Positions 1,830 through 49,626 of a DNA stretch of 50,037 nucleotides are shown here, piece after piece. The position numbers were made by a program, and so were the translations under genes. Source of the stretch: a virus; IMG/VR virus record IMGVR_UViG_3300020559_000006. The stretch is one strand, 5' to 3'. The notes beneath the pieces are model-generated. The model made no database searches and was not told where the DNA came from. It was given only the letters and a program-made list of their open reading frames with translations. Every line of letters begins with the position of its first letter. The first letter of the stretch is position 1.

Positions 1830-1863
1830 AAGTCACAATTTCACCCCACAAGAGGAAATAAAC

Positions 1864-2581: not shown

Positions 2582-2610
2582 ACTTTTGCGGAGCTTCTTA
2601 GTTCCGCGAT

Positions 2611-2647
2611 CGCCAAGATACAAGTAATATTTGCTTATATCTTGGCG
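2611..2647 (+). other. 10-bp stem hairpin (CGCCAAGATA/TATCTTGGCG) next to a HIP1 site
   Basis: Perfect inverted repeat with a 17-nt loop in the 2582-2684 spacer. The T tract is weak. Confidence 0.35.
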
Positions 2648-2684
2648 GTTTATTCGCAAACATAACATTAGGAGTTCAAAATGA

Positions 2685-3116
2685 ATGAGTGTTTATTTTT
2701 TCAGTCGGCACAAAATAGACCCTAAAATGGTCGAAGACCTGGGGGGTGGTGCTATAAACCAGGTTAGAGGGACGATCAAAGATATTCGCCGCACTGGCGA
2801 CACTATCACATTCAGCGAGATAATTCTTGCTCAAGACACAGATAGCGTTCAAGAGATAGTATGCCATACGATCTCGGCTGACTCAATAGTGGTAGCAGTT
2901 GCACCACTAAACCTCCAAATAGACTGGCTTAACGCGGGGATAAGGACCTTCCTTATCCCCCAGACCACACGGGAAGTGGTTGACGGAGAACCGATTTTCT
3001 CCTACACTGGACTGGTGCGGATAAAGAGAATAATAATAGACAAAGAGCAGTGGGTAGGTGTTTCACCTACCATTGAACAGAAACACGCCGAGAGATCGGC
3101 GTTGCACAATTCATAA
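2685..3116 (+). CDS. Hypothetical protein (143 aa)
   Basis: ORF downstream of TTAGGAG. Confidence 0.6.
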   Translation: MSVYFFSRHKIDPKMVEDLGGGAINQVRGTIKDIRRTGDTITFSEIILAQDTDSVQEIVCHTISADSIVVAVAPLNLQIDWLNAGIRTFLIPQTTREVVDGEPIFSYTGLVRIKRIIIDKEQWVGVSPTIEQKHAERSALHNS

Positions 3117-3124
3117 TTTTTAAA

Positions 3125-3153
3125 AGACAGGGTACTTAGATACCCTGTCTTTT
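3125..3153 (+). terminator. Rho-independent terminator of the left-arm operon
   Basis: AGACAGGGTA-CTTAGA-TACCCTGTCT followed by TTT. Confidence 0.8.
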
Positions 3154-3215
3154 GCACAGTTACTTAAACAAATGGCGTGAAGTCAACGGCCATTTAGTTT
3201 CTATTAAAATAATTT

Positions 3216-3258
3216 AAAATCCTCCAAAGTGCTTTTGTATAAGACTTTGGAGGATTTT
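3216..3258. terminator. 15-bp stem hairpin, bidirectional-terminator-like
   Basis: AAAATCCTCCAAAGT / ACTTTGGAGGATTTT with a 13-nt loop and A/T runs on both sides. Confidence 0.6.
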
Positions 3259-3539
3259 TAAATTTAATTATGAGGGATAAAAGGCATACAAAAAATGCGT
3301 GTATGCCTTATGTGTGCTGAAATCTAGCAACTACCGTGATAAATATCGAGTAACCTTACAGATAGTGAACAACGTTACTTTTTGGGTGTAATTGGGTTTA
3401 TTGATGTATCTTGGCTTACTTTTCATTGGGAATTACGTAGAATGTTCATTCCCTGTTCTTTGGGTATGGGGTGATAAATATCCGTAAAACTGGTAAATCA
3501 GATTGGTATTCTGGATAAACAACCAATCTGATCTAATTT

Positions 3540-3959
3540 ATGTTGCACAAAATAATTGTCGGAACTATGTTAATGGTCGCAATACCTAGCCCTTACGCGA
3601 TCGCACAAAATGCACAAAATGGCGATACATTGACTGGATACTTGGAATTAATCTCATCTGGCATGGGCGTAAATAGTAGGGGTGAGTGTTATGGGCGAAA
3701 TGGATTTATCGACATAATGGGTCAAATCCCGGTAATCATCAAAAACGAGTCGGGGACAGTTATTGCCGTCGGGAAAACAGAGACAGGTAAACAACCCGAA
3801 GAACATTCAGCGGTAAGATGTATTTTTAATTTTCGGGTTGAGAATATCCCAAAATCAGTTTTTTATAGCGTCGAGATAGGGCGACGTGGGAGCGAAACGT
3901 TTTCCCATCAACAATTAAAGGATCAGGGTTGGGATTTGAAGTTGAGACTGCACAGATAA
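3540..3959 (+). CDS. Secreted protein of unknown function (moron-like)
   Basis: N-terminal signal peptide MLHKIIVGTMLMVAIPSPYAIAQNA. Isolated gene after a 420-bp hairpin-rich spacer. Its stop abuts the tape measure stop. Confidence 0.6.
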   Translation: MLHKIIVGTMLMVAIPSPYAIAQNAQNGDTLTGYLELISSGMGVNSRGECYGRNGFIDIMGQIPVIIKNESGTVIAVGKTETGKQPEEHSAVRCIFNFRVENIPKSVFYSVEIGRRGSETFSHQQLKDQGWDLKLRLHR

Positions 3960-6900: not shown

Positions 6901-9071
6901 GCACTCCCTGGGGCTGTCTGTCGGTTTGCATCTAAGTGAAAACCAATTGCAGATCGTTGAGTGCGAAAAGTGGGATTTACAGGAATAAATCTTGATCCAA
7001 CTCCTGCTCCCATCCCTGCAACTTCGCCACCAATATTGTAAGTGCCATATTCAACAGGTGCTAGTGATCCGCTTTGAGTAGTTCCACCTGCCCCGAACAT
7101 TCCTTGGGTGCGACGAGTACCGCTATTTACAGTGTGTTGAGCGATCGCCCGTCCTTGATCGTCATAAACTACCAAGGCTATTTTCTCTAGCCCGTTTTCG
7201 TCTTTTTGCCCAGTGCGGCGCATGATTACCTTGCTTTTGGGGTTCGCGGGTGATCCTAACCCAAAAAAACCTTGCACGCCCTGAACGATGTTCCCTATTA
7301 TGTTATTACCATTACCAGAGTTAGGTGACGATGCCTGTAGCTGTGCTTGCGGCTGTGTCGTTGGTTGTTGATTTTGTCCTGTTGCCCATTTCCAAAATTC
7401 CTCAGCCTTCTTGGTAGCTAATTGAAACGCGCTGCCAATTCCCGGTATTCCTTGACTTGCAAATTCCCCAGCTTTTTGAATAGCACTACCAATATTTGAT
7501 GTCCATTTACCAATATTTTCGCCAATAGCTTGAGTAATTGAAACTGCGGTTTTTAGCCCTGCATTCAACAAATTAATGCCGTTAGTTGTGAGATTTACAA
7601 CACCATTAAATAAGGACTGAATCAACTTAATCAATGATTTAACTAAATTTACACAGGTATTCCATGCCGCAACAATTCCATCAGCGATCGCTTTTGATAT
7701 ATCAATGGTTTTCTGCCAAATATTATTTAAAGTTGGTTCACTGGCAACCCAAATATCAGCCGCGCCTCTAGCACCTGCTTGGATACCACCAACAATTAAA
7801 TTTATCCCATCAAAAATAAATTTTAACCCGTCAAAAACGACTTTAACTACTCCCCAAAAATCATTAAAGGCAGTAGACATATCCCTGATAATATTCGGGT
7901 TAGTTTCTAAATATTTGGTGAAACTTGTTATCCCGTCTAATAATAATTTAAACGCACCCGCTACTAACTCTTGAATAGCTTTATTTAGGGATTGAACCAA
8001 CTGCGGATTAGCTTTAAAAGTTCCGACTAATTTCTCAGATTCTTTGCGGACATCCTTCATGATTCCGTTAGAAGATGTCAAGCCAGACACAATATCACCA
8101 AATGTCTGGACAATGAAATTCATGATCGGCTCAAATGCCACGCCGATTGATTTCTGGAACTGATAAAAAGTATCTTGGACGTTGGATAGACGACCTTCTA
8201 AAGTTTTTGCTTTATTCTCCATTGCCCCAAAATACGCCCCGCCCTCAGCACTCATGCGGCGTAAAGCTTCCTCAAGGTGACGAAATTCTAGTTTTCCGTC
8301 TGTGGCCAGTTGTCTAATTTCAGATTCCTTTGCCCCTAGCATTTTGGCAAGTTCAGCCCGAAGCTGCACCCCGCGCCCCGTAAATTGGTCAATGTCTTCA
8401 TTCTGTAATTTCCCCTCAGTCCGTGATTTGGCGTAAACTTCCATCAAGTCGCCAAGTCTGGCGTTAGCACCTGCGGCGACATCACCAATGGTTTTGAGGT
8501 CTTTGATAATCTGATCTGGTTTTGCACCGGTTGCTAAGTTTTGGATTGCTGCTTGCTGTAAATCCTTTAGCTCAAACGGTGTAGTAGCTGCAAACTTCTC
8601 TAACTTGCCGACAAAATCATCAATTTCTTTTTGATTGCCCTTGAGGAAGGTTTTTAGTGAAGATTCAAAGTTTTGGAAGTCTTTGGTAACATTGAAAATC
8701 TCACCCGCGAATTGTTGAACCGCACCCAGTGCCGAACCAACTACACCAGTAATTGAGTTAAACGCCCCAATCCCAGCCCCAACAAAAACACCATTAAAGA
8801 CATTGCTTAAAATGCCCTTAATCGGCTCAACTGCGTTCTTGAATCTATCCGTGAAAGTTCTCCCCGCGGCCTGTCCGGCACTCGCAGCTTGAGCAGTTGC
8901 TTGGTTTAAACCTCCTAGCCTGTTTCCTCCGACACTTCCAAAGGCTTGGTTTATCTGCTTCTCAATACCCTTGGCTACCTGCGTGGCGTAAGCCTTGGTT
9001 TGATTCAATTGTTGGTATAGTGCGGCTTGGTTGGCCGTTAGCTGTAGTTCAAGAGTACCAAGGGAAGTCAT
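3960..9071 (-). CDS. Tail tape measure protein with embedded GH24 lysozyme and YkuD-like (L,D-transpeptidase fold) domains
   Basis: 1703 aa. TP901-type TMP core (FELKDLQQAAIQNLATGAKPDQIIKDLKTIGDVAAGANARLGDLMEVYAK...). Lysozyme LVKKSEGFAATPYFD...NQLDALTSFAFNVG at ~6225-6640. IGFHLDAN...GSAGCIVF at ~6885-6950. Long coiled coil and Gly-rich C-terminus. Confidence 0.9.
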   Translation of the reverse strand: MTSLGTLELQLTANQAALYQQLNQTKAYATQVAKGIEKQINQAFGSVGGNRLGGLNQATAQAASAGQAAGRTFTDRFKNAVEPIKGILSNVFNGVFVGAGIGAFNSITGVVGSALGAVQQFAGEIFNVTKDFQNFESSLKTFLKGNQKEIDDFVGKLEKFAATTPFELKDLQQAAIQNLATGAKPDQIIKDLKTIGDVAAGANARLGDLMEVYAKSRTEGKLQNEDIDQFTGRGVQLRAELAKMLGAKESEIRQLATDGKLEFRHLEEALRRMSAEGGAYFGAMENKAKTLEGRLSNVQDTFYQFQKSIGVAFEPIMNFIVQTFGDIVSGLTSSNGIMKDVRKESEKLVGTFKANPQLVQSLNKAIQELVAGAFKLLLDGITSFTKYLETNPNIIRDMSTAFNDFWGVVKVVFDGLKFIFDGINLIVGGIQAGARGAADIWVASEPTLNNIWQKTIDISKAIADGIVAAWNTCVNLVKSLIKLIQSLFNGVVNLTTNGINLLNAGLKTAVSITQAIGENIGKWTSNIGSAIQKAGEFASQGIPGIGSAFQLATKKAEEFWKWATGQNQQPTTQPQAQLQASSPNSGNGNNIIGNIVQGVQGFFGLGSPANPKSKVIMRRTGQKDENGLEKIALVVYDDQGRAIAQHTVNSGTRRTQGMFGAGGTTQSGSLAPVEYGTYNIGGEVAGMGAGVGSRFIPVNPTFRTQRSAIGFHLDANRQTAPGSAGCIVFANQQEFDSFRNALKQSGAKQLIFDEGKGQVGIVNAVVGTELNSFKPIQEAAKNALPTGAGLSSRTANIVRGKNEEIFGKAGVTDSLVALVKKSEGFAATPYFDRTQYSVGFGTKAKSTGDRLTVEEANQRLLNELLYKRSRVQKMVKVPINNNQLDALTSFAFNVGEGALGESTLLKKLNSGDYAGAAKEFLRWNKGEHRGVKQALPGLTKRRNSEMQLFLSQSNTTPAQQAAIGERRTGNGELAQTPGVAQGGNAEDQRNLLAARRKLAETKYREIKDEIDAATKQADNAQKQQRELDAKKRDQLDKEKRAEFAAYEALAPDDEAKKIIQKRAKQYEIDNRYQENLIKFSQEREDLLDARNKKLEILAAAKKRGETVTPDDAGVDYSKAINQLDEIIKSQKQLRDLELETNNLNQSSAEKEIEKNKDRQREIEKLSRVHEAYINQLKLQQSLVGDDATKQGIQLTIDKAQIEYSAKAALMPLQNQLYDLQDRKVYLLGEGGLKKDSEEVKRLQKDINNLVAQIHSIANKGGVDLKLFENQRKQIELQNQRLRESEKQEIEHNKQVLELNKEISTARTQQQKAELQFQLDKINAIQQEKQVLTTLKQEYDDLTQGREKLINEGKLDAASDVIKVLDGKIADLNEKIKILGEQSKSSFETLTREGQKTIEQGRFADLESALSKEASMLPAQTGLIRRRGGNEYEVSALEAEAARMEEQFRYKQELLQIEQQIAAAKGKANEYTEQEIAALQANAEAINKINLEGISQQVKTLGKDLLDVGKNALGSFFGDIISGSKSAGDAFKDLIGSIAQQLTQLAVNSLISSIFGGGGGLFGGGGGKGGGILGFSEGYVPNYATGNSNPISEALNRERVQSGGRKAILGVFNEDEMILTAEQSKRFQELRLDKILNFANGGIVGGGQNLSNEIGSKNMNINIPVTVEGGGDSSVNVPQLQNSLRSVVLAEIQKQQRPGGALNR

Positions 9072-21738: not shown

Positions 21739-21819
21739 GTCATCAAAAAAATATTTTAAAAATTTTTCCAAAACCCCTTGACAAATATTTGTTATCCTGT
21801 TACTATATAAGAGTGAGAG
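21739..21819 (+). promoter_or_regulatory. Early promoter P1 (TTGACA-17-TACTAT) with palindrome ACAAATATTTGT
   Basis: -35 at 21778-21783, -10 at 21801-21806, palindrome at 21781-21792, A/T-rich upstream element. About 80 nt nearly identical to P2-P5. Confidence 0.8.
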
Positions 21820-21842
21820 AAAAAACAACAGGAGAAAGAACA

Positions 21843-22327: not shown

Positions 22328-22385
22328 ATTGTTTAAAATTCGTGGCAGTCTGAGAAATTTTACTAACTTAATTCACGGTAAACTG

Positions 22386-22463
22386 TCACTTTTTAACTTT
22401 AAAAAAACTTTCCAAAACCCCTTGACAAATATTTGTTATCCTGTTACTATATAAGAGTGAGAG
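22386..22463 (+). promoter_or_regulatory. Early promoter P2
   Basis: -35 at 22422-22427, -10 at 22445-22450; same palindrome. Confidence 0.8.
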
Positions 22464-22483
22464 TTCAATAAAAGGTAAAAACA

Positions 22484-22847: not shown

Positions 22848-22928
22848 AGTCATCAAAAAATATTTTAAAAATTTTTCCAAAACCCCTTGACAAATATTTG
22901 TTATCCTGATACTATATAAGAGTGAGAG
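22848..22928 (+). promoter_or_regulatory. Early promoter P3
   Basis: -35 at 22887-22892, -10 at 22910-22915; same palindrome. Confidence 0.8.
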
Positions 22929-22952
22929 AAAAAAACAACAGGAGACAAAATA

Positions 22953-23270: not shown

Positions 23271-23350
23271 AGTCAAAAAAATATTTTAAAAAAACTTTCC
23301 AAAACCCCTTGACAAATATTTGTTATCCTGATACTATATAAGAGTGAGAG
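23271..23350 (+). promoter_or_regulatory. Early promoter P4
   Basis: -35 at 23309-23314, -10 at 23332-23337; same palindrome. Confidence 0.8.
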
Positions 23351-23369
23351 AAAAAACAGGAAACAAAAA

Positions 23370-24344
23370 ATGAGAGTAGCAGAAATTAACACCACAGAAC
23401 TAAATTTAGACCCCAAAAGATTTCAATACAAACTAGTCCACAATTCAACAGGTGCTACTGGTTCATTATCAGGAATTGACTCCTGGAATATCTATTTGTC
23501 AGGAATTGTATTGGTGTGGGAAGATTTTGGAGACATTTATGTGGTCAATGGTCACAACAGAGTAACCCTGGCCAAAAAGCTGGGGGTTCAAAAAGTTCTC
23601 TGTAGGTTCATTGATGCCTCTACTCATGTAGAAGCTAGGCTAGTAGGTGCACTGGCCAACATTGCAGAGGGTATGGGAACTGCCATTGATGCAGCCAAGT
23701 TTTTTAGAGACTCATCATATACCGTAAAAGACGTAAAAAACTTTGGCATTAATCCCAGGTTAAAAATAGTGCAAGATGGGTTAAGCCTGTCCAATCTGGT
23801 TAGTTTCCTGTTTGATAAGGTTATTACTGGCACTATTCCCATTGATAAGGGTGTGATTTTGGGTAGTGTAGGGACCAGAGAACAGTTGGAAGTCTGGGAA
23901 TTGATTAAGGATAAGCAGGTTAGCACCCCTGCATTGGATGAAATTATCGCAAATATCCTTAACCCTGCAACTGGGCAAATGTCCCTGCTTAACCTCTACA
24001 TAGACAGTGATGATGAGCTAATAAGACTAGAGTTAATTGCCCTGGTAAGGGTCAAGCTACAAAGATCCAAAAAACTATTACACTTAGTCTCAGATAACTC
24101 TCAATTCCTAGAGTCAATAGGAAACAACTTAAATCACACTGGCAACACATCAACTGGTGAGTTAACTCACTATGTGCTACAAATTTTTGACCAGTTAAAA
24201 AATCAGAGTGGACCAGTAAGTGACATTCTCAGTAAAGGTGTCAATGCTATAAAATCAGGTCAATCAATGCCTGATGTGATAACTGTTTGTGTTAATGAAC
24301 TAATCACAGTTATTCCTAGAATGATCAACCAAAAAGTTGCTTAA
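23370..24344 (+). CDS. ParB/Srx-like N-terminal domain protein
   Basis: IYVVNGHNRVTLAKKLGVQKV resembles the ParB box (DGHHR...A..LG). Confidence 0.55.
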   Translation: MRVAEINTTELNLDPKRFQYKLVHNSTGATGSLSGIDSWNIYLSGIVLVWEDFGDIYVVNGHNRVTLAKKLGVQKVLCRFIDASTHVEARLVGALANIAEGMGTAIDAAKFFRDSSYTVKDVKNFGINPRLKIVQDGLSLSNLVSFLFDKVITGTIPIDKGVILGSVGTREQLEVWELIKDKQVSTPALDEIIANILNPATGQMSLLNLYIDSDDELIRLELIALVRVKLQRSKKLLHLVSDNSQFLESIGNNLNHTGNTSTGELTHYVLQIFDQLKNQSGPVSDILSKGVNAIKSGQSMPDVITVCVNELITVIPRMINQKVA

Positions 24345-24404: not shown

Positions 24405-24923
24405 ATGAATAAACATAAACAGTTATCAATTTTTGACTTGTTTCCACAAGATGAGCAGGTGAGAGGCAAGGCAACTGAAACTCACCCCACACCACCACCT
24501 AGAAACTCAGTAATTGGCAAAATGAGGGCTATATCAATCCATGCTCCTCATGCTTATGCAATTTGCCTAGCAATAAAGCCCTATGAGTATAGAAACTCTC
24601 CTACAAAGTTTCGGGGTTGGGTTTTGATTCATTCCAGTGGCAGCAAAGCTAGTGATTCAAGCTTTAAAGACTATCAGTTAGAAGACATCAGACACCTTGT
24701 TTCCAGGCAAGCTTTAATTGGTGCTGGTTTTATATCAGACTGCCAGAGGATGGAAGAAGGGGGCTTTGCCTATTTATTCAGTGAGGTATTGTTATTTGAC
24801 AGCCCTGTTGAAGGGGTGAAGGGTTGCCAAAGCATATTTTGGGGGGACTGTAATGACCCTGCTAAAATAAAGGCTTTTGAGCAAGCTAGAGAAGAATTAA
24901 AGGCTTTTGATATTAGCCTTTAA
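24405..24923 (+). CDS. ASCH-like protein
   Basis: MRAISIHAPHAYAICLAIKPYEYRNSPTKFRGWVLIHSS matches the typical ASCH N-terminal pattern. Confidence 0.45.
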   Translation: MNKHKQLSIFDLFPQDEQVRGKATETHPTPPPRNSVIGKMRAISIHAPHAYAICLAIKPYEYRNSPTKFRGWVLIHSSGSKASDSSFKDYQLEDIRHLVSRQALIGAGFISDCQRMEEGGFAYLFSEVLLFDSPVEGVKGCQSIFWGDCNDPAKIKAFEQAREELKAFDISL

Positions 24924-24929
24924 TGTCCT

Positions 24930-24971
24930 GTAAAATAGAGGGTAATTAGTGCCAATTACCCTCTATTTTAC
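24930..24971 (+). other. Perfect 18-bp stem hairpin without a U tract
   Basis: GTAAAATAGAGGGTAATT-AGTGCC-AATTACCCTCTATTTTAC. Ends 1 nt before ATG 24973. Confidence 0.6.
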
Positions 24972-24972
24972 T

Positions 24973-25446
24973 ATGAATTGGATATACAGTATGCGTCCCG
25001 ATGTGGCGTTAATGGTGTTAGATAGCCAAATTAATATACTATTTTCTCCAATAAAAATAACCGGAAAAGTCGCAATTCATACGACATTTTATGAAGACAA
25101 GAAGGAACAAATAAAATGTGATCAAATGATTAGAGACATGGGGTACGAACCCGACCATATTCTCGAAGGTAGCTTAATGGGATGGGCAAAAGTTAAAGAG
25201 TGTATTGTTTACGATGACAATAGCTTTATGGCAGATTACAATAAGCACCGCTCTATAACGCCAAATTTACAGCAATTTAGGCAAGATAATCAATGGTATG
25301 GCGATGTTTTTGGAGTGTATTTAGAAAATATAAATATTCCAGCATTGCCGATAATCTGGATAGGGGAATACCAAAAACCCGGTACATGGTGGCAGCCCGG
25401 AGTACCGTTAGACTCCATCGGCTGCAAGATTTTATTTGCAAGTTAA
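24973..25446 (+). CDS. Hypothetical protein (weak ASCH/PUA-like resemblance)
   Basis: ORF; start uncertain (ATG 24973 or 24991). Confidence 0.4.
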   Translation: MNWIYSMRPDVALMVLDSQINILFSPIKITGKVAIHTTFYEDKKEQIKCDQMIRDMGYEPDHILEGSLMGWAKVKECIVYDDNSFMADYNKHRSITPNLQQFRQDNQWYGDVFGVYLENINIPALPIIWIGEYQKPGTWWQPGVPLDSIGCKILFAS

Positions 25447-26093
25447 GCGGCTCTTTGTGATCTTCGTCTATTGGCTATCTGTTTAATAAGTTGACCTCTA
25501 GCCGCCCTTGCTTCGCTAGGTCTAGGACGGACTGCTGGTGTTGGTGCTGTTGCTGATGCAGCCCTCCTAGAACCTCTGTTTTGATGGGGATCACCACTGG
25601 TGCTACCACCACCAGCATTGCCAGTCCTACCGCCACCACCGCCAGCATTAGCAGTAAGCCCACTTCTTCGTGCTTCTCTCATTGTCCTCCTAGAAGTTGG
25701 GTCAAGAAATTCTGCTGTCGAATAACGGTTTAGCCTGTTACGTCTTCTGGCTGGGGTATCATTGTAAGCATCAAAGCCAATCCTCATCCTCCGTGGCGTA
25801 CCTTGTCCACCTCCAATACCTCTAGCAACGTTAGCAATGCCGCCTCTAGTGCTACCGCCACCAGCATTGCCAGTGCTACCGCCACCAGCATTGCCAGTCC
25901 TACCGCCTCTTCGTGCTGTTTCTGCTATTACTTGCGGCCTACTACGTGTATCAGTAAAATCCCCCCTTTGTTGTGCTGGTGTGAAAAAACGGTTAATCCT
26001 GTTGCGAGTTCTAGGGTTCTCAAAATCAAGTCCAGTACTTATCCGTCGCCTACCTTGTCCGCCTCTAGTGCTTCTAGCAACGCCTCTAGCCAT
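25443..26093 (-). CDS. Arg/Gly-rich low-complexity protein with internal duplication
   Basis: Repeats GRTGNAGGGST(GNAGGGST) and two RxRNRxNRF/Y segments. ATG 26093 after AGGA. All other frames open here are shadows. Confidence 0.55.
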   Translation of the reverse strand: MARGVARSTRGGQGRRRISTGLDFENPRTRNRINRFFTPAQQRGDFTDTRSRPQVIAETARRGGRTGNAGGGSTGNAGGGSTRGGIANVARGIGGGQGTPRRMRIGFDAYNDTPARRRNRLNRYSTAEFLDPTSRRTMREARRSGLTANAGGGGGRTGNAGGGSTSGDPHQNRGSRRAASATAPTPAVRPRPSEARAARGQLIKQIANRRRSQRAA

Positions 26094-26140
26094 AACGGTC
26101 AATCCTAATTTTGTAAATATGTTTATCTTTAGTTTTCCCA

Positions 26141-26470
26141 ATGACGGTATTAGCAGAAAGTGATGCAGTTCACTACGAGTTACTGACAGATGAGAGCGAG
26201 ATTATCGGCAGCGTGTTTGCTGTTGACCAGTGCGAGTATATCGAGATAGTTGATTTATCCGTTGGACAAGAATTTCAAGGTCAAGGTTATGGGCGATCGC
26301 TCATGCAGATAATCTTTGACAATCACCCAGACACCATACTTTGTTTACGATGCAGCGCGTTCGACAATGGATTAAGTCAGGAAAACTTAGCGGAATGGTA
26401 TAAACGGCTGGGATTTGTGGATGGTACACCATTTCATCAAGGTGATGGGTGGATGCACAGACCTATTTAG
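26141..26470 (+). CDS. GNAT-family acetyltransferase
   Basis: Motif A VGQEFQGQGYGRSLMQ and C-terminal WYKRLGF. Confidence 0.6.
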   Translation: MTVLAESDAVHYELLTDESEIIGSVFAVDQCEYIEIVDLSVGQEFQGQGYGRSLMQIIFDNHPDTILCLRCSAFDNGLSQENLAEWYKRLGFVDGTPFHQGDGWMHRPI

Positions 26471-27353
26471 CCGTCAGCCTGGCGCTAACTTCTGGGAACA
26501 AGTCACACAATTCTTTGAGTTGAACGGGTGCGTAACGCGCTAACCACTTATAATAAGTTCCACACAGAATTTCTGGGCTACAATACCAAAGCGTCCGGGG
26601 AAATGGCTTGCCTTTTTTCTGCGGTATTTGGTGCATTGAGTAAATAGGTGAGATTGGTGCGTCCTCTTCCACTAGCAACGCCCAAACATCAATATCAAGC
26701 CAATCACCTATCGGGAGTCCACGCACATAGGGTAAATAGTCTTTTTTGTCCTGATCACGGAATTGAATTAGTCCTTCTCGACTAATTTCAAACTGGCGTT
26801 CCATGCCTTCCGCGCCGCGATTTCCCCACATACACATTACATTGGGGTTTCCATCACCATAATTATGCTGAAATTGATAGATGGCTTCGTAGGAAATGCT
26901 ATCCCTCATTTCTCCCCAATCCCAAAAATTCAATGGTTGTCCATCTTTAGTTTTTAATCCGTAAGAATTACCCCAATCTAAATATTTTTTAATAATTAAT
27001 GGAAACGGGTCATCAGTTAAATACTCCTCATAATAAAACCCGTTACCAAATGAATTGATATAATCCTCCCACTCTGGCAAAACATCATAGTGGTGCGGAA
27101 GTTCCGCACCGCAATCAATAATTAAATTACAATAATCAACCTCTGCTAATTCCAAAATTATTGCAGTTGCCATTGAGTCTTTACCGTACCCAAACCACAA
27201 TCCTGGTATGACATCCTGATTAATTTTAGGATCATCATACCAAGTCCGCACACGCTCAATGGTTTTGTTCTTGAGTGCCTGAAATTCATCAGTTTTCGCC
27301 CGTTTCGCTGCTTCTATATATTTCTTCTGCGGCAGTGCTTTCGATATTTCCAT
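26463..27353 (-). CDS. PAPS-reductase-like (PP-loop; IbrA-like) protein
   Basis: WFGYGKDSMATAIIL resembles the SGGKDS PP-loop. Last gene of the sigma-ParB operon. Confidence 0.5.
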   Translation of the reverse strand: MEISKALPQKKYIEAAKRAKTDEFQALKNKTIERVRTWYDDPKINQDVIPGLWFGYGKDSMATAIILELAEVDYCNLIIDCGAELPHHYDVLPEWEDYINSFGNGFYYEEYLTDDPFPLIIKKYLDWGNSYGLKTKDGQPLNFWDWGEMRDSISYEAIYQFQHNYGDGNPNVMCMWGNRGAEGMERQFEISREGLIQFRDQDKKDYLPYVRGLPIGDWLDIDVWALLVEEDAPISPIYSMHQIPQKKGKPFPRTLWYCSPEILCGTYYKWLARYAPVQLKELCDLFPEVSARLTAK

Positions 27354-27981
27354 CTCCCCAAATATCCCCTTCTAAAATGTTTTCAGGCCAAGTCAGTACA
27401 TCTTCTTCTGTGCGCTGCACTTCTTCTTGGGTTTCTTCGCTGTCATCTTCTTCTTGGTCGTCACTTTCTTCTTGGGCATCATGGATTAATTTCTCCAATT
27501 CTTCTAGTGGTAAATCAGCGTCTAGTTTCAATTGTTGAATACAAGCAAGTGCTAATTCTCGCGCCATTCTGTCTTGTGATTTTTGCAGAATAGCAACAAT
27601 AAATGCCTTGCAAATATCTAACTGACGGCGGACATCCCCCATTTTTGATAGGCGAACCGCGCCATCCGCTAAAGCTAAAGTTCCCTGAAATGCTGCCAAC
27701 ATTCCGTTTAAATCAAGTCCTAAAAGCCGCAGTTTTAATTCTTCGACAAACTCAAAAGTTAGCTCCCCTTGTTCAACTAAAATTTCACACGCTTGGAGCA
27801 AAGTTTTCCCTTCTTTGGAGAATTTCCCCGCGCCTTCAATTTGTGAAAGAATCCGACCATGGGCAGCATAAAAACTCTCACGGACAATGCTCTCAAAGTC
27901 ATAATCTTGGGCATCCGTGAAAGCGTCGCGCCATTTCCCAGATAATCGTTTACCGTAGAGTCCGTTATTCTTCTTTGGCAT
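27289..27981 (-). CDS. Hypothetical protein with acidic C-terminal tract
   Basis: 230-aa ORF; EESDDQEEDDSEETQEE tail. Overlaps the downstream gene by 65 nt. Confidence 0.5.
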   Translation of the reverse strand: MPKKNNGLYGKRLSGKWRDAFTDAQDYDFESIVRESFYAAHGRILSQIEGAGKFSKEGKTLLQACEILVEQGELTFEFVEELKLRLLGLDLNGMLAAFQGTLALADGAVRLSKMGDVRRQLDICKAFIVAILQKSQDRMARELALACIQQLKLDADLPLEELEKLIHDAQEESDDQEEDDSEETQEEVQRTEEDVLTWPENILEGDIWGDGNIESTAAEEIYRSSETGEN

Positions 27982-28270
27982 TACGAACCAACCGGACTAC
28001 TTGGGTAATTATCTTGTTGACTTCCTGCATCGCTTTTGAACGGCGACCATGCCTGATGTTGTTCTTTCCACATTTGGATTTATCGCGTGGTCCGGTTGAC
28101 TTCTCCCAAGGCCTATGTACTAAACATCGTTGACGTGCGGCTTCTATAAACTCAGGTGATAGGTTTTTCCGCTTGTACCTTTTAGGCGGATATTTTTTAG
28201 CCCTGAATGACTCCAAAAACTTGTCAGAATCCAACGTTTTCGGCTGTGATTGCTCCGTCTGTACTGTCAT
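27965..28270 (-). CDS. Small basic protein
   Basis: 101 aa, Lys/Arg-rich; overlaps both neighbours. Confidence 0.45.
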   Translation of the reverse strand: MTVQTEQSQPKTLDSDKFLESFRAKKYPPKRYKRKNLSPEFIEAARQRCLVHRPWEKSTGPRDKSKCGKNNIRHGRRSKAMQEVNKIITQVVRLVRNAKEE

Positions 28271-29195
28271 TTATTGCCACTCCTAACTCGGTGCTCATCA
28301 TGTCTACTATCTTTAGAATTACCTGACTCCGATATTGCTGAACCATGCCCTCAGTTGAGATGCCAATTTTGGGTGCAAGTTGGTCAAGTTTAGAGCGAAA
28401 ATTAGCTAAATCACCCTTATCTAAAAAGATAAAAAACTGTGTTTGCTCACCCTTCCCGGTGTAGTTAATTGACTGAACTGCACCAACATCTGTCACATTT
28501 TCAGTTTCAACAATGACCTTTTCCGCAGGTGGTGGAGGTGTGTAATCGCTTCTACTGGGTGTTACGTCAATGGTAGTGCCATCTTCACTCATTTGAGGAT
28601 TTGGGTATTTCTCGTCATCAAAATCGTAACCCGTTTCTTCCTGTTCCTCTTCCGGTTCTTCTTTGCGAACTAGAAAGGCTCGCATAAAACTGTTAGCAGT
28701 TGAAGTATCCCAACCCGCTGTTTTAATCTGTCTTTTGGGCATTTGCGCCAAAATTGCGGCAATTTTACCGGGGTCATCACGTCCATCATGGCTAGTATTG
28801 TTAAGTCGAAGCAGCGCCGACTTTTGGGATAGTTCATCGAGCGTGACGGGAACGACGGGGATAGCAGTCCAATAATTAGCACAAAACCGCTCTCGATGTT
28901 TTTCGGCTACTTTATCTCTCCCCGTCCCTTTGATCCACCGATCCCACTCTTTCAGGAAAAAATCTTCATCCTGTTGGCTTAACCAATCCGCACCCTGAAC
29001 CCTGCCATGTCCTGAGATGAGGTAGCCGAAACTACCGTCTAGGTTTCGCTGAATTGTGGGGTAAATCAACCATCCAAAATCTAGCAAGCTGTCACGAATC
29101 CAAGGCAAATCATTCTCTTCTGAATGTTCGCGGGGATTTTCAGGGTGGAATTTTGCCAATACGCTGGAGATTGGCAATCGTAAAACTTCACTCAT
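28224..29195 (-). CDS. ParB-like N-terminal domain protein (IbrB-like)
   Basis: GYLISGHGRVQGADWL box. Acidic linker and unknown C-terminal half. Confidence 0.55.
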   Translation of the reverse strand: MSEVLRLPISSVLAKFHPENPREHSEENDLPWIRDSLLDFGWLIYPTIQRNLDGSFGYLISGHGRVQGADWLSQQDEDFFLKEWDRWIKGTGRDKVAEKHRERFCANYWTAIPVVPVTLDELSQKSALLRLNNTSHDGRDDPGKIAAILAQMPKRQIKTAGWDTSTANSFMRAFLVRKEEPEEEQEETGYDFDDEKYPNPQMSEDGTTIDVTPSRSDYTPPPPAEKVIVETENVTDVGAVQSINYTGKGEQTQFFIFLDKGDLANFRSKLDQLAPKIGISTEGMVQQYRSQVILKIVDMMSTELGVAINDSTDGAITAENVGF

Positions 29196-30309
29196 TTTTA
29201 GCCTTCTCTACCGCTTGTTGTGAGTGAATCATTGCCTCATGCAGCGATTTTAACGCCGCTTCTACTTGAGGAGAATCGCCACAGGTTTTGATCACCCAAT
29301 CTGCAAGTCCGGTAAACTTGCTGGTAATTTGCCATTGTTGTTGTACTACCGTCATTTGTTTCTTCGATAGATTTATTAAATTATTGATAACATAATTTTT
29401 ACTCCATAGGTAAGCGGTGCTGTGGTCAACTCCCAAATAAGTTTCACACCAATAACTAGATTTACCGTTAGCGATCGCCTCCAATACTTTCACCTTCACA
29501 TCATTAGAATAGCCACGTCTCCCAGTCGGTAACGGGTTTTCTCTGAATTGAGTCTGGCAGGACTTACACAAATAACCCTGTTTTCCGTCACGCTTACCAT
29601 TTTTAATAGTTTGGTAATCTTTGCAATTTGGGCATTGAACCCGCCCTACTGCTATCAACTTTAATTTTCGTAAAGCGTCAGATTCAATTCGGCGCAACTC
29701 CTTCAATTTAATATTATGGATTTGGCACAACATTTTGGCGGGGATATGGGTAATATATAAATCTTTGATGATTGTGGCGTGAAGTTCTGGCAACTTATCA
29801 AGCAGCGGGAGAATTGACTCTGATTCCTCTGCTTGCTCCGTTGTCAACTGTTCGGGTAGTTCAGGATTATTTTGATTGCAAGCTATCGCCGCCTCTTTGG
29901 CAACTTGTAAAGAGATATTTAGTTCAATGGCCGCTTGTTCATAAGTTACGCCATGTTTTTGCGCGTGTCGCTTCAATTTTTGGTGGGTTTCTTGGAGGGG
30001 ACGCGGAACTTTTACCATCCGCGCTTTATCCCTGACAAATTGCGCCATTGCACCATAAATAAACGGCACGGCGTAACTGGAAAGTTTAATTTTCTTAGTA
30101 GGGTCAAACCTCTCCACCGCTTTGATTAATCCCTCCGCCCCAATTTGTATCAGGTCTTCTCTTGGGACTGTGCAGCAAGCGGTCATTTTACCTGCTATAT
30201 GACCGACTAGCCCCATGTTAGTCTCAACTATTTTGTTTCTCAGTCGGATGTCCCTGGTTTGGTGAAAATTAATTAAAAGTTGCTGATTGTCTAAGTATGC
30301 CGCGTCCAT
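29188..30309 (-). CDS. Sigma-70 family factor fused to a C-terminal InsA-like zinc ribbon plus HTH
   Basis: Region 2 DLIQIGAEGLIKAVERFDP...SYAVPFIYGAMAQFVRD, region 3 VKVPRPLQE, region 4 ELRRIESDALRKLK. Then CPNCKDYQTIKNGKRDGKQGYLCKSCQTQF. Confidence 0.85.
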   Translation of the reverse strand: MDAAYLDNQQLLINFHQTRDIRLRNKIVETNMGLVGHIAGKMTACCTVPREDLIQIGAEGLIKAVERFDPTKKIKLSSYAVPFIYGAMAQFVRDKARMVKVPRPLQETHQKLKRHAQKHGVTYEQAAIELNISLQVAKEAAIACNQNNPELPEQLTTEQAEESESILPLLDKLPELHATIIKDLYITHIPAKMLCQIHNIKLKELRRIESDALRKLKLIAVGRVQCPNCKDYQTIKNGKRDGKQGYLCKSCQTQFRENPLPTGRRGYSNDVKVKVLEAIANGKSSYWCETYLGVDHSTAYLWSKNYVINNLINLSKKQMTVVQQQWQITSKFTGLADWVIKTCGDSPQVEAALKSLHEAMIHSQQAVEKAKNE

Positions 30310-30695
30310 TTATCCCAAATTTAGTAATAACTTTTAAATTACCCAGTCCTGGCGTGTTTGTCACTGACCCCGAAACAGGAAACCCTGTGCAAACTACAAC
30401 TGATGTAGTAGTACAAGCATGGATGGAGGGTAACGCCGCAGTTAAACCCGAACCAGGGCAAAACCCAAATGTAGTTAACTTGCGCGGGTATGCTGTAAAA
30501 CCCCGATTACTGCCAACTGAGTTGATCCGTAAACAGTCGGAAGCATCAGCCGTTTATGTTGACCCATTGACGGGGAATGAGCAAACGGGGAAATTTACGC
30601 TACAACCGCAGTTTGACGGAAAACGCCCCAGAGTTACAAAGGCTTTAGCCCGTGCTTTGGGGTCTGAATTACAAGGTACTTTTGAGTTTAGTTGA
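30297..30695 (+). CDS. Hypothetical protein (start uncertain)
   Basis: 132-aa ORF whose ATG overlaps the sigma gene start head-to-head by 13 nt. Confidence 0.4.
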   Translation: MPRPFIPNLVITFKLPSPGVFVTDPETGNPVQTTTDVVVQAWMEGNAAVKPEPGQNPNVVNLRGYAVKPRLLPTELIRKQSEASAVYVDPLTGNEQTGKFTLQPQFDGKRPRVTKALARALGSELQGTFEFS

Positions 30696-30879: not shown

Positions 30880-30912
30880 AAAAAATGGGGTGATAGTTCA
30901 CCCCATTTTTTT
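30880..30912. terminator. Bidirectional rho-independent terminator
   Basis: AAAAAA-TGGGGTGA-TAGT-TCACCCCA-TTTTTTT between convergent genes. Confidence 0.8.
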
Positions 30913-31226: not shown

Positions 31227-31247
31227 GGTTTTACCTTTATTTCTCAA

Positions 31248-31330
31248 CTCTCACTCTTATATAGTAACAGGATAACAAATATTTGTCAAGGGGTTTTGGA
31301 AAGTTTTTTTAAAATATTTTTTTGATGACT
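31248..31330 (-). promoter_or_regulatory. Early promoter P5 (minus strand)
   Basis: -35 at 31289..31284, -10 at 31266..31261. Nearly identical to P1-P4, including the upstream element. Confidence 0.8.
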
Positions 31331-31648: not shown

Positions 31649-31675
31649 TGGTTTAGGGTTTCACTGTTTTTGACC

Positions 31676-31740
31676 TCTCTACATTTATATAGTAACAGCC
31701 TAACAAATATTCGTCAAGGGGGTTTTGGAAAGTTTTTCAA
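31676..31740 (-). promoter_or_regulatory. Early promoter P6 (diverged family member, TTGACG-17-TACTAT)
   Basis: -35 at 31717..31712, -10 at 31694..31689. The palindrome is degenerate (ACGAATATTTGT). Confidence 0.65.
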
Positions 31741-31778
31741 ATCAGGGGAAAGCTTGCTAAAACAGGATAAATATCAGT

Positions 31779-33047
31779 ATGGGCAAAGCGTTAGAGGTTT
31801 TTGAAAAAACCTGTAAAAAAGGTAAAGCTTGCGGAAATGCTTGTATTTCCGCGCTTAGAAATTGTGCAAAGAAAACCGGAGAATCCACTAAAAAGACCGG
31901 AGAATCCACTAAAAAGACCGGAGAATCCACTAAAAAGACCGGAGAATCCACTAAAAAGACCGGAGAATCCACCAAGGAAACCGGGGAATCCACTAAAAAG
32001 ACCGGAGAATCCACTAAAAAGACCGGAGAATCCACTAAAAAGACCGGGGAATCCACTAAGAAAACTGGGGAGTCTGCTAAAAAACTGGGGAGTCTACTAA
32101 AAAAAACTGGGGGGTCTACTCAACCCACTAAAACCACACTTGTATCATACAAAGCCGATTCTTCGGATCATAAGGCTTTGATGAACATAGGCAAGGATTT
32201 TTCTGATCAAACTATGGGGAAAGCACTAAAAGCATTACAAGATGCTCAAGCTGAGAAAAAGAATTTCTTTATGGACATAGAGAGGAATAACAAGAAAACC
32301 AAACAAGGAAAATGGTTCAAAAAAGATGAAAAACACGCAGCAAAATTGGATGAGAAAATGTTACTTGCCCAGAAAGAGCTTGAAGCGGCCGCAGAGGGAA
32401 CGTTACAGAAATTAAAAGCCCATCATAAAATTGATAGAGAAGATGCAGAAAAATGGGCTAATTCACTTGTTTCTGACAAATTCACGCTCACAGGTAAAGA
32501 CAGGGAAACAACTTTGACTGCTTTAGCGGATGTTTATATGATAACAGGCGGCATGGGTGCGACAGAACTAAAAAAAGTAGTAAGTACCGATACAAATAGA
32601 GCCTTTGCAGATCCATACACTGGAGAACTAACTTTAGAAAGTAAGGGTCTAAAGATTCTTGGCAAAGAATTATCTCCAGAGGCTGAAAGTAGCCTTACTT
32701 CTCGTCGTGAGACAGTGTTCCACGAATACGCGCATTTTTCGGAATTTGAGAATAAGCAATTGGCTGTCGCGTCAAGAAAATTCATTGAAGATCGGGCTAC
32801 GTCGTCTGAGCTTATGAAAATAAATGATATAACTGGATTCAGCGGATACAGAGATAATGAGATGGCAATCCCAGACAACTTTATAGACCCCTATGTAGGG
32901 AAGATATATGGTCCTTCGGGTACTTGGACTGAGGTTGTTTCGATGGGAGTTGAAAGCTTTAAAACTCCCTTTCAGATGGCTTCCTTTTACAGGCGAGATC
33001 CAGAGCATTTTAATTTTATCTTAGGAGCGATTTTACATGAAAATTAA
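31779..33047 (+). CDS. Repeat protein: 12 x KKTGEST heptads plus a C-terminal HExxH (zincin-like) domain
   Basis: 422-aa ORF. CGNACISALRNC, then the heptad array, then VFHEYAHFSEF (HEYAH at 32721-32735). Confidence 0.6.
   Translation: MGKALEVFEKTCKKGKACGNACISALRNCAKKTGESTKKTGESTKKTGESTKKTGESTKKTGESTKETGESTKKTGESTKKTGESTKKTGESTKKTGESAKKLGSLLKKTGGSTQPTKTTLVSYKADSSDHKALMNIGKDFSDQTMGKALKALQDAQAEKKNFFMDIERNNKKTKQGKWFKKDEKHAAKLDEKMLLAQKELEAAAEGTLQKLKAHHKIDREDAEKWANSLVSDKFTLTGKDRETTLTALADVYMITGGMGATELKKVVSTDTNRAFADPYTGELTLESKGLKILGKELSPEAESSLTSRRETVFHEYAHFSEFENKQLAVASRKFIEDRATSSELMKINDITGFSGYRDNEMAIPDNFIDPYVGKIYGPSGTWTEVVSMGVESFKTPFQMASFYRRDPEHFNFILGAILHEN
31869..32120 (+). repeat. 21-bp tandem repeat x12 (in-frame, coding)
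   Basis: AAAAAGACCGGAGAATCCACT units; the last three are degenerate. Confidence 0.95.
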
Positions 33048-48645: not shown

Positions 48646-49626
48646 CTAATCCGCCATATCTTCAGTAATACGTTCACACACAACCCGAAAACCAATATGG
48701 ATGTCGTAGTAGTGGTCGAGATTGCTGAGGTTGCGAAAAGCAGAACGACAATTCTCAGGATAGGTGTCCCACGAACCACCGCGCAGCAGTTTCCAGTTAT
48801 TATCCTCTTCATTATTTAGCCATGCGCTTCCATCTATTGGCGCACCTTCATAGTCATTATGCCAATCGTCTTGACACCATTCCCAGACGTTGCCGTGCAT
48901 ATCGTATAATCCAAAGTTATTAGCTACTCCAAAGCTGCCTACTTCTGTTGTTTCTTTTCGATAAACTCCTTTAGATCCTTGACCATAAGTGTAATTACAA
49001 TTGTAGTTAACCAAATCCGTTGTTATCGTCTCTCCAAAGTGAAATGGTGTGGTAGTTCCGGCTCGACAGGCATATTCCCATTCCGCTTCACTTGGCAGTC
49101 TGTAAGTTTTTCCAGTTATTTGGCTTAACTTTTCACAAAAAGCCACTGCATTATCCCAACTAACGCATTCAACAGGACGATTACTACCTTTAAAGAGAGA
49201 AGGGTTAGTTCCCATAATAGCTTGATATTGTGCCTGTGTTACCGGATATTTTCCCATCAAGAAACTAGGAACTGTAACATGATGTTGGGGACGTTCATCA
49301 TCATTGCTACCTTCCTCTGTTTCTGGTGAACCCATCATAAAACTGCCACTAGGAATCATCACCATTTCTAATTGAACTACATTATATCCTGTTTTTTTAG
49401 CTAGATTTTTCCACTCGGAATGCTTCCAACCTTTTAAAAGGTTGAAGGTTTTTTCATCCATTAAGAGATCATACTCGGAATGCTTCACGCCGATTAAATC
49501 GGCCAATTCCTTGACCCAGGGTAATTCGATTTCACATGAAATCATGTGAGTATTTGTTTGCATTGTTTGATTAGCTTCGACTTCGGTAAATGGTTGGATA
49601 ATTTGATTAGTTTCCATTGGAGTCAT
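48646..49626 (-). CDS. FGE-sulfatase (SUMF1/EgtB/PvdO family) domain protein
   Basis: [13 protein letters not shown]...[22 protein letters not shown]...[14 protein letters not shown]...[17 protein letters not shown]...[15 protein letters not shown]...LRGGSW. Confidence 0.85.

Follow-up and report, generated by a model that had tools for sequence, protein, structure and literature searches.

What does a phage do with a ParB-like protein and a PP-loop protein resembling 3'-phosphoadenosine-5'-phosphosulfate (PAPS) reductases, encoded together in one operon? The question is raised by the minus-strand genes at positions 26463-30309 of IMG/VR virus record IMGVR_UViG_3300020559_000006 (50,037 nucleotides; "the window" hereafter denotes this whole stretch of DNA). 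ParB-like genes paired with PAPS-reductase-like genes occur widely on phages and islands, and we know of no such pair whose biochemical function has been defined; routine annotation labels phage "PAPS reductases" as auxiliary genes of sulfur metabolism. The conserved unit of the locus is the ParB-like/PP-loop pair and not the sigma-coupled five-gene operon that contains it here. The best explanation for the pair, with a probability of roughly 0.35, is a ParB-assisted, sulfur-independent modification of DNA for anti-restriction.

A preliminary description of this DNA had reported five tightly overlapping minus-strand genes running from 30309 to 26463, and the program-made list of open reading frames (ORFs) contains all five at those coordinates. 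In order of transcription they encode a sigma-70 factor (29188-30309, 373 amino acids (aa)), a ParB-like protein (28224-29195, 323 aa), a basic protein (27965-28270, 101 aa), an acidic-tailed helical protein (27289-27981, 230 aa), and a PP-loop protein (26463-27353, 296 aa). Consecutive genes overlap by 8, 47, 17, and 65 nucleotides (nt), and a consensus scan placed a single weak terminator-like site (5-bp stem) on the operon strand within the block. The motifs first noticed in the ParB-like protein (ISGHGRVQGA) and the PP-loop protein (GYGKDS) are both present. Searches with tblastn and local hidden Markov models (HMMs) recovered the five products in the same gene order from IMG/VR contigs, metagenome contigs, and three Nostocales assemblies, down to 58% identity of the PP-loop protein. 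Because the ORFs are conserved as proteins in a constant order, they are real genes rather than chance reading frames, and the sigma, ParB-like, 101-aa, 230-aa, and PP-loop genes form one translationally coupled operon. Identical operon proteins are present on 58-86 separate metagenome contigs (at most 68 kb long), and Dolichospermum metagenome-assembled genomes (MAGs) contain near-identical copies. When 50,697 deposited phage genomes were searched at the DNA and protein levels, neither the DNA of the region nor the PP-loop or ParB-like protein had a match, and no cultured relative carrying the module was found among them.

From its sequence profiles and predicted structure, the product of 26463-27353 is assigned to the PP-loop ATP pyrophosphatase/adenine nucleotide alpha-hydrolase superfamily as a PAPS-reductase-like, cysteine-less member. 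The superfamily is marked by a Rossmann-like fold whose first strand is followed by a P-loop-like motif of the SGGxDS type. Taken alone, the protein matches Pfam PAPS_reduct at an E-value of 4.5e-4 (20.7 bits, versus a gathering cut-off of 22.5), and 25 of the 27 members of its family match the same model (best 6e-10). The AlphaFold2 (AF2) model is confident (predicted local distance difference test (pLDDT) score 92.4) and places the PP-loop motif G57-K58-D59 directly after the strand at residues 51-53. Foldseek gave a probability of 1.00 to many PP-loop superfamily structures, with matches to adenosine-5'-phosphosulfate (APS)/PAPS reductases (CysH), TtuA, FAD synthase, GMP synthetase, and YcfA (E-values around 1e-5, template modelling (TM) scores of 0.4-0.5, 12-16% identity), and the model also matches phage "PAPS reductases" in BFVD (3e-8). 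A sequence profile searched against the PDB found CysD (6e-4) and FMN adenylyltransferase as its best matches. The nearest relatives are the short phage "PAPS reductases" of PHROG 424 and 2302, which are homologous over their full length (hhalign 99.9%, E-value 1.8e-36, 249 columns) and share with the family an N-terminal helix and the C-terminal "W..YP.L...L...FP" helices. The initial identification of a PP-loop, PAPS-reductase-like product is thus borne out.

Within this family G57, K58, D59, E94, E182, W218, D222, and W224 are invariant and S60 is found in at least 90% of members, giving the motifs GKD(S), R..E, and W..D.W. Cysteine occurs in at most 59% of members at any alignment column and is nowhere invariant. 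The catalytic cysteine of CysH lies in a C-terminal ECGLH-type motif. Given the lack of a conserved cysteine, neither CysH-type reduction nor sulfur transfer of the DndC/TtuA type through the protein's own cysteines or an iron-sulfur cluster is expected. This bears directly on the reading of the gene as an auxiliary metabolic gene, in which a phage CysH would boost assimilatory sulfate reduction by the host, as the automatic annotation "PAPS reductase/FAD synthetase" and the fold similarity to CysH and APS reductases would suggest. Such a role is barely credible: in addition to lacking a CysH-type catalytic thiol, the protein falls below the Pfam gathering score, has only the above 12-16% identity to real reductases, and is obligatorily paired with a ParB-like protein, and a Pfam scan of the 40 other ORFs of the window found no other sulfur-assimilation gene. 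The auxiliary-gene reading was rejected on the absence of a conserved cysteine in the alignment.

The family is also sharply isolated. An HMM search of 1.84 billion representative sequences returned 12 clusters at E < 1e-30 (273-447 bits), after which scores fell to 62 bits or less, and members occur in only three of 185,579 species genomes (Tolypothrix, Aetokthonos, and Nostoc, all Nostocales). The ParB-like family is equally rare and co-restricted. Below the score gap, the 36 outgroup "PAPS reductases" examined are mostly 230-320 aa long; 35 match Pfam PAPS_reduct, all match PHROG 424 and 2302, and none contains DUF3440, a domain that was also not detected at E <= 0.01 in any of the 27 family members. 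Family proteins end about 55 residues past the core and, relative to the outgroup, have an inserted region of about 40 residues (approximately residues 100-165). The nearest outgroup protein (P0103, in L012, the sole outgroup locus inspected) is encoded, within the stretch 1856-5786, just downstream of the type IV CRISPR-Cas genes Csf1, RAMP, and Csf3 and upstream of a radical S-adenosylmethionine gene, and Pfam annotation of its called neighbors revealed no ParB-like gene. CysH-like genes reportedly accompany type IV-B CRISPR systems, which this locus fits.

For the product of 28224-29195, a ParB/Srx fold with box I/II/III-type pocket motifs is accepted on the basis of phage profiles, invariant motifs, and structure prediction. 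Neither Pfam nor NCBIfam matched the protein, PADLOC matched neither it nor the PP-loop protein, and no Pfam model, including ParB_N, matched any of 19 family members; matches were obtained with PHROG 620 (1.6e-12), PHROG 723 (1.3e-8), and PHROG 498 (1.5e-8). The family alignment contains the invariant motifs HPENPREH, GHGR, and RLNN, and the invariant residues P18, N20, P21, R22, and H24, together with G62-H63-G64-R65, align to the NPyqPR and GerR motifs of Spo0J (boxes I and II). The AF2 model (pLDDT 60.5 overall, 70-90 in the N-domain) suggests a nucleotide-binding-type N-terminal domain (approximately residues 1-175), an acidic disordered linker (176-250), and a C-terminal helical hairpin (260-310) that probably dimerises. 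The 28 top Foldseek matches in the PDB (lowest E-value 4e-3) are all ParB, Spo0J, Noc, KorB, PadC, or Srx (sulfiredoxin). The alignment to ParB, Noc, and KorB extends over approximately 175 columns, beyond the short Srx core, and residues 121-174 align to the central region of ParB with low TM only. The first description of this protein as ParB-like therefore holds at the superfamily level, and the profile searches that it had proposed for all five proteins place the ParB-like and PAPS-reductase-like products as expected, at the level of superfamily and family profiles.

A ParB fold, and the presence of homologues on large contigs of Nostocales genomes, could also mean that the protein serves plasmid-prophage partition or acts as a packaging accessory, with the other genes as hitch-hikers. 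This is highly improbable, since the scan of the other window ORFs contained no ParA-type ATPase family, the large terminase gene, 3 kb from the operon, is on the opposite strand and has upstream genes of its own, and the tight coupling of the ParB-like gene is to an enzyme gene.

Comparison of related loci, dereplicated to 17 lineages with enough flanking sequence, shows which parts of the operon belong together (identities refer to the PP-loop protein compared with that of the window). Ten lineages with 58-100% identity, here termed class I, have the order sigma, ParB-like, 101-aa, 230-aa, PP-loop, with variable small inserts between the last two genes; in L016, a larger ORF at this position has a C-terminus that looks GNAT-like by eye. 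In a more distant group (39-43%; L010, L027, L029, L030, and L033/L034), the ParB-like gene abuts or overlaps the PP-loop gene, and three of these lineages have a 230-type gene at a distance of 1-3 kb upstream; in L033 a 101-like ORF detected by profile precedes the 230-type gene, and in L029 and L030 the preceding ORFs appear 101-like by eye only. L008 (44%, one lineage) has the order ParB-like, 101::230 fusion, a 46-aa ORF, a HAD/PNK3P phosphatase (2.9e-6), and PP-loop, and L011 (38%, one lineage), a Planktothrix MAG, has the PP-loop gene and no detectable ParB-like gene. Overall, the ParB-like gene is located upstream of the PP-loop gene on the same strand in 16 of 17 lineages, and, of the seven lineages below 45% identity, five have the two genes side by side or overlapping. 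No sigma gene was found within the examined flank of L008, L010, L027, L029, L030, or L033. With the ParB-like and PP-loop genes kept in 16 of 17 lineages, the 230-type gene in 14, and the sigma gene only in the closer lineages, the stable unit is the ParB-like/PP-loop pair. The co-occurrence analysis suggested in the preliminary description thus supports its pairing of the two genes; its observation that the pair is parted by two extra genes is correct for the window and lineage-specific, since distant relatives have the two side by side. An invariant PP-loop and a ParB-like partner kept across such deep divergence indicate ATP-dependent chemistry with a DNA-associated partner.

The genes surrounding the pair differ from one distant lineage to another. 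NUDIX genes are found directly upstream of the ParB-like gene in L033 (4.9e-14) and L027 (4e-16), and a Thy1 (ThyX) gene lies approximately 6 kb upstream of the pair in L010, with left-end ORFs of L029 and L030 appearing ThyX-like by eye only. A PAS-EAL protein (EAL 4.8e-48) is encoded between the 230-type and ParB-like genes in L029 (2035-3171) and L030 (1912-3000), and the same position is occupied by a large protein with SLOG (YspA-related) and DUF4326 domains in L033 (2256-4181, minus strand) and L027 (4092-6155, minus strand). EAL domains are typical of cyclic di-GMP phosphodiesterases.

The two extra products seem to belong with the pair. The 101-aa basic protein, with the motif "PWEKSTGP(K/R)..(E)GK....N.(R/K)HGRRS", is kept in all class I loci and has weaker homologues in L013 and L033. 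The 230-aa protein is helical, its acidic tail terminates in a conserved (L/P)W(D/E/N) tip, and it belongs to a family of 29 proteins, all from cyanobacterial genomes, MAGs, or metagenome contigs; in the distant lineages that encode it, its gene adjoins the ParB-like gene or lies 1-3 kb upstream. Neither protein matched Pfam, NCBIfam, PADLOC, or PHROGs, a PDB profile search with the 230-aa family gave chance-level matches only, and a homologue search with the distant fusion included in the alignment returned nothing beyond the same small clade. That fusion, a 310-aa protein in L008, combines the N-terminus "CKFHGGASTGAKTPEGK...KHG", which resembles the motif "STGP(K/R)..GK..N.RHG" of the 101-aa protein, with a 230-aa-type helical domain and an acidic tail, and so the 101-aa and 230-aa products probably represent the halves of a single functional unit, taken here as an accessory subunit on the evidence of their sequences. 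The N-terminal motif may be akin to that of RefSeq "HGGxSTG domain" proteins.

The obvious comparison is with IbrB and IbrA of the Escherichia coli ECOR-9 island, which Sandt et al. reportedly found genetically in 2002 as activators of prophage genes (cited in PMC10434257). Homologues of both are reported by the authors of Flavobacterium phage FCL-2 (PMC4541368). Every gene is labelled hypothetical in the FCL-2 record; a 184-aa gene (5340-5894) with a weak ParB_N match and a 377-aa gene (5876-7009) with PAPS_reduct (1.5e-16) and DUF3440 (4.1e-10) matches, which overlap by 19 nt, are taken to be the reported IbrB and IbrA. The common features are a ParB/Srx-fold gene upstream of a PAPS-reductase-like PP-loop gene and a location on a mobile element. 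However, IbrA has DUF3440 after its PP-loop domain, which the present family lacks; the ParB-like protein here has 323 aa with an acidic linker and C-terminal hairpin, compared with 184 aa for FCL-2 IbrB; and the operon adds the 101-aa and 230-aa partners and sigma coupling. The PP-loop family profile aligned with FCL-2 IbrA over only 69 core columns at 75% probability (24 bits, versus 112 bits with the outgroup profile), and the ParB-like family profile did not align with FCL-2 IbrB (probability 0.4%). Judged against the FCL-2 sequences, the resemblance thus appears to be one of kind (superfamily and pairing) and not of family. What remains of the IbrA/IbrB-like pair initially proposed is a co-oriented pair of PP-loop and ParB-fold genes; the specific likeness lapses, with no DUF3440 and no profile-level match to the FCL-2 proteins.

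The first gene of the operon was correctly recognised as a sigma-70 factor. Sequence models assign it, with regions 2 and 4 present in approximately residues 1-217, to the SigF-like group 3 (SigF/SigB-like) factors: it matches Pfam Sigma70_r2 (4.4e-12) and r4 (1.9e-5), PHROG 351 (5.8e-38 over residues 17-307), and, as best NCBIfam model, cyanobacterial SigF PRK07408 (4.6e-36, far below the curated cut-off). It passes the general sigma-70 superfamily model (72.9 versus a cut-off of 42.9), and all NCBIfam equivalog and subfamily scores are far under their cut-offs (124.8 versus 261), which makes it a divergent phage member. Its C-terminal extension (residues 223-373 overall) begins with an IS1 InsA-like zinc ribbon (223-252; Pfam Zn_ribbon_InsA 0.0025), followed by a helix-turn-helix (HTH), the two being contained in residues 223-300. 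A fragment of this extension is labelled "transposase-like" in one source. The sigma factor of the 58%-identity lineage L013 has 231 aa and no zinc-ribbon/HTH tail. The sigmas of Cylindrospermopsis phage Cr-LKS4 and C. raciborskii virus RM-2018a are likewise SigF-like, come from phages of heterocystous hosts, and share 41% identity over residues 2-223; they differ in being stand-alone proteins of approximately 225 aa that lack the zinc-ribbon/HTH tail and are not followed by ParB-like or PP-loop genes.

The promoter evidence does not place the pair under the control of this sigma factor, as had first been proposed; the factor is merely the first gene of the transcription unit. The window contains six to seven near-identical copies of a promoter cassette of approximately 75 nt, consisting of an A/T-rich tract, CCAAAACCCCTTGACAAA, a 17-nt spacer, TACTAT, and ATAAGAGTGAGAG, with boxes of the sigma-70 type (TTGACA-17-TACTAT); its 18-nt core matches seven times in the window compared with an expectation of 0.06. 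Four plus-strand copies (21740-21830, 22384-22474, 22849-22939, and 23271-23361) face a plus-strand early array at 21.7-23.3 kb, two minus-strand copies (31237-31327 and 31665-31755) face minus-strand genes at 31.2-31.7 kb, and a degenerate plus-strand copy lies at 306-396. By sequence these cassettes look like host-sigma-70-type early promoters of two divergent early arrays. No copy lies directly upstream of the sigma gene; the nearest upstream cassette to the operon is at 31261-31299 on the minus strand (TTGACA-17-TACTAT) and the second, degenerate, is at 31689-31727 on the same strand. A promoter for operon control by the phage sigma was sought, and only these host-type early cassettes were found, elsewhere and not before the operon. 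A strong hairpin at 30880-30911 (minus strand; 14-bp stem with A-run and T-run flanks, terminator-like in both directions) is located between the operon and the upstream minus-strand genes with the nearest early promoter. The start of the sigma gene overlaps a divergent, conserved 132-aa gene (30297-30695, plus strand) by 13 nt (30297-30309), so that the promoter of each gene must lie inside the coding sequence of the other or farther off. The operon may be transcribed by read-through from the early promoter at 31299 or may have a start inside the 132-aa gene, and, with the sigma factor as its first product, it would at least initially be transcribed without the phage sigma.

Like E. coli IbrA/IbrB, the pair could instead act in transcription, working with the co-encoded sigma factor to reprogramme it, for example as a KorB-type nucleotide-gated DNA clamp in contact with RNA polymerase or by modifying a component of the transcription apparatus. 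Consistent with this idea, every one of the 10 class I lineages has a 4-8 nt overlap between the sigma stop and the ParB-like start, the fold matches of the ParB-like protein include KorB, the sigma factor has its unusual zinc-ribbon/HTH addition, and the literature lists IbrAB as "coactivators of prophage gene expression" (PMC5874904, PMC4490671). Set against these points are the persistence of the pair in the six distant lineages that have no nearby sigma gene, the lack of such partners beside the Cr-LKS4 sigma, the closest from a cultured phage, the absence of any relation to FCL-2 IbrA/IbrB beyond the superfamily, and the invariant catalytic residues of the PP-loop, which argue for enzymology over a purely structural regulator. 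A transcription module is therefore regarded as a doubtful alternative, and the transcriptional coupling to the sigma gene originally described stands for class I alone, since it is seen only where PP-loop identity is at least 58% and the Cr-LKS4 sigma stands by itself.

Precedents for a ParB-like protein assisting a DNA-modifying enzyme come from several systems. In DNA phosphorothioation, ParB-type proteins are paired with PAPS-reductase-like proteins (DndB/DndC, SspD, and BrxP; PMC10853773, PMC12839542, PMC12914056), so that, as may be the case here, a ParB-superfamily protein joins a PAPS-reductase-like ATP pyrophosphatase acting on DNA. The present pair differs in being phage-encoded, where DndB-DndC belongs to a host defence island, and its PP-loop family lacks the conserved cysteine dyad or iron-sulfur motif of DndC, SspD, and BrxP. 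The scan of the other window ORFs also found no DndD or DndE family, and DndC-like phosphorothioation was rejected because there is no conserved cysteine and no desulfurase, DndD, or DndE partner in the window. DpdB is a ParB-like ATPase for DpdA (PMC12839542), and the phage thymine dioxygenase 5mYOX176 requires ParB176, which consists of a nucleotide-binding domain and a C-terminal domain with no obvious DNA-binding domain (PMC13229309). These pairs are alike in architecture, with a nucleotide-binding ParB N-domain and a C-terminal helical domain encoded beside an enzyme; the partner enzyme is of a different class, being a PP-loop protein here versus a tRNA-guanine transglycosylase (TGT; DpdA) or an iron/2-oxoglutarate dioxygenase (5mYOX176). 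In addition, phage PAPS-reductase homologues have been proposed as DNA-modifying anti-defence genes (PMC13551039).

On the explanation preferred here, the ParB-like and PP-loop proteins would form a complex on DNA, in which the ParB-like protein would be the nucleotide-gated DNA-loading or activating partner, as in the DndB/DndC, DpdB/DpdA, and thymine dioxygenase precedents, and the PP-loop protein would be an ATP pyrophosphatase or nucleotidyl transferase, not a reductase or sulfur transferase. The enzyme would use ATP to adenylate a target oxygen, either of a backbone phosphate or of a base carbonyl, and the adenylated oxygen could then be replaced by another nucleophile. The likely outcome would be a sulfur-independent covalent mark on the phage DNA that blunts host restriction, with the 101-aa and 230-aa products serving as an accessory subunit. 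In the Nostocales lineage, the module may have been placed behind the phage sigma gene so that it would be made together with the sigma factor, probably as a delayed-early product, and would not necessarily be sigma-controlled. A more specific and distinctly unlikely form of this proposal is that the pair, perhaps together with the split or fused HGGxSTG-like acidic-tailed protein and an Arg-rich protein encoded next to them, carries out a previously undescribed, adenylation-driven, sulfur-independent modification of the backbone or a base of phage DNA.

Several points weigh against a DNA-modifying function. In L011 the PP-loop gene has no detectable ParB-like partner, and gene order in the related loci could partly reflect shared phage ancestry instead of function. 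The ParB-like model is only moderately confident (pLDDT 60, TM approximately 0.24/0.40), and the protein has no demonstrated DNA-binding domain. Among the 40 other ORFs, the Pfam scan detected neither a methyltransferase nor a TGT/DpdA, desulfurase, or glycosyltransferase, and the window does not supply an obvious second substrate or donor source for the PP-loop enzyme. Furthermore, the NUDIX and HAD neighbors in relatives fit a free-nucleotide substrate equally well as DNA.

The last point leads to another possible reading, in which the pair acts on free nucleotides or small molecules, making a modified dNTP precursor before replication or destroying or altering a host immune-signalling nucleotide or cofactor. 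The nearest PDB sequence relatives of the PP-loop protein, CysD and FMN adenylyltransferase, are small-molecule nucleotidyl transferases, and YcfA, which we take to be a 6-thioguanine enzyme, is among its fold matches, with PDB structures that have bound ATP and GTP. NUDIX, HAD/PNK3P, and Thy1 (ThyX) genes occur beside or near the pair in relatives, and members of the ParB/Srx superfamily with NTPase activity are known (PMC10853773, citing Maindola et al. 2014). These neighbors nevertheless differ among lineages, the window showed no polymerase or other machinery dedicated to modified dNTPs, and the ParB-like alignment of approximately 175 columns is to the DNA-binding proteins ParB, Noc, and KorB and not to the short Srx core alone. 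Free-nucleotide chemistry is thus considered tentative, as a minor alternative to DNA modification.

Other genes are conserved beside the module. An Arg/Gly-rich, low-complexity basic protein (25443-26141, minus strand, 232 aa) without a family match is encoded 3' of the PP-loop gene, and a protein of this kind (92-232 aa) is found at that position on the same strand in every related locus examined, even in the locus without a ParB-like gene. The corresponding positions are L008 8928-9251, L010 8987-9265, L011 5295-5903, L013 8933-9376, L016 8936-9457, L027 8963-9310 and 9318-9701, L029 5343-5771, L030 5188-5604, and L033 7161-7550, and the sequences align only loosely. The protein is possibly DNA-condensing, virion-internal, or a partner or substrate of the PP-loop enzyme, and its membership of the module is uncertain. 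In the window it is separated from the PP-loop gene by a GNAT acetyltransferase gene on the other strand (26141-26470, plus strand, 109 aa; Pfam Acetyltransf_7 4.1e-9), which converges on the end of the operon, is kept in L001-L005 and L007, and is possibly an accessory or an unrelated insert. On the opposite strand to the module, 172-aa and 165-aa proteins (24405-24923 and 24949-25446, plus strand) are also conserved. Homologues of the 165-aa protein, most with an N-terminal "MPRSxxD" and with a conserved "YTGR..H..Y" stretch, are encoded beside the module, on the other strand, in each distant relative with examined flank, and homologues of the 172-aa protein lie beside them in several loci (L002-L007, L010, and L016); examples are L029 5848-6459 (minus strand) and L016 9447-10019 and 9992-10393 (minus strand). 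The 172-aa protein matches only PHROG 3193 (unknown function, 9e-15), and the 165-aa family has no Pfam relative and gave chance-level matches only in a PDB profile search.

The gene at 23370-24344 (plus strand), which belongs to the early array and has its own cassette copy at 23299, had been singled out as a second ParB-like gene. Its product most strongly matches the C-terminal portion of a portal-fusion PHROG (phrog_21, 6e-34), and only marginally (0.004-0.006) the ParB-like N-terminus found in methyltransferase fusions. The only feature that it has in common with the operon ParB-like protein is an 18-residue GHxR stretch (hhalign probability 1.2%), and it was rejected as a paralogue on this basis.

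The window as a whole represents a siphovirus-type phage of heterocystous cyanobacteria (Dolichospermum/Nostocales), and the hosts are filamentous freshwater cyanobacteria. Among its products are a tape-measure protein that includes an endolysin domain, a J-type tail fibre, a large terminase, and a portal, as well as ERF, SSB, and an exonuclease identified in the Pfam scan; Rfam and tRNA scans of the window were empty. The endolysin-type domain is internal to the 1703-aa tape-measure protein (3960-9071, minus strand) at residues 796-1020 (PHROG 7, 7.5e-42). A 422-aa ORF (31779-33047, plus strand) contains 11 copies of a 21-nt unit at 31875-32103 (90% matches) that encode KKTGEST heptads, and the C-terminal part of its product matches only PHROGs of unknown function. 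An unusual cargo for a phage is a protein with an FGE-sulfatase/PvdO-like domain at 48646-49626 (minus strand; Pfam FGE-sulfatase 2.7e-56, PDB PvdO 6.9e-40).

The clade described here is a deeply divergent, very rare, and cyanophage-restricted form of a kind of system that is already known, distinguished by the absence of conserved cysteines and of DUF3440, by its extra partners, and by its sigma coupling. It overturns nothing established and provides an abundant case for a ParB-assisted enzymatic function. The cysteine-less clade is also a clean counter-example to the default annotation of such genes as CysH auxiliary genes, with thiol-redox and iron-sulfur-based sulfur chemistry being unlikely. 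Because freshwater metagenomes contain this phage in abundance and it is linked to bloom-forming Dolichospermum, existing long-read data or virion DNA could reveal a modification directly. If the pair does produce an adenylation-driven mark, this would be a DNA mark of a chemically new type that is specific to phages of filamentous, bloom-forming cyanobacteria.

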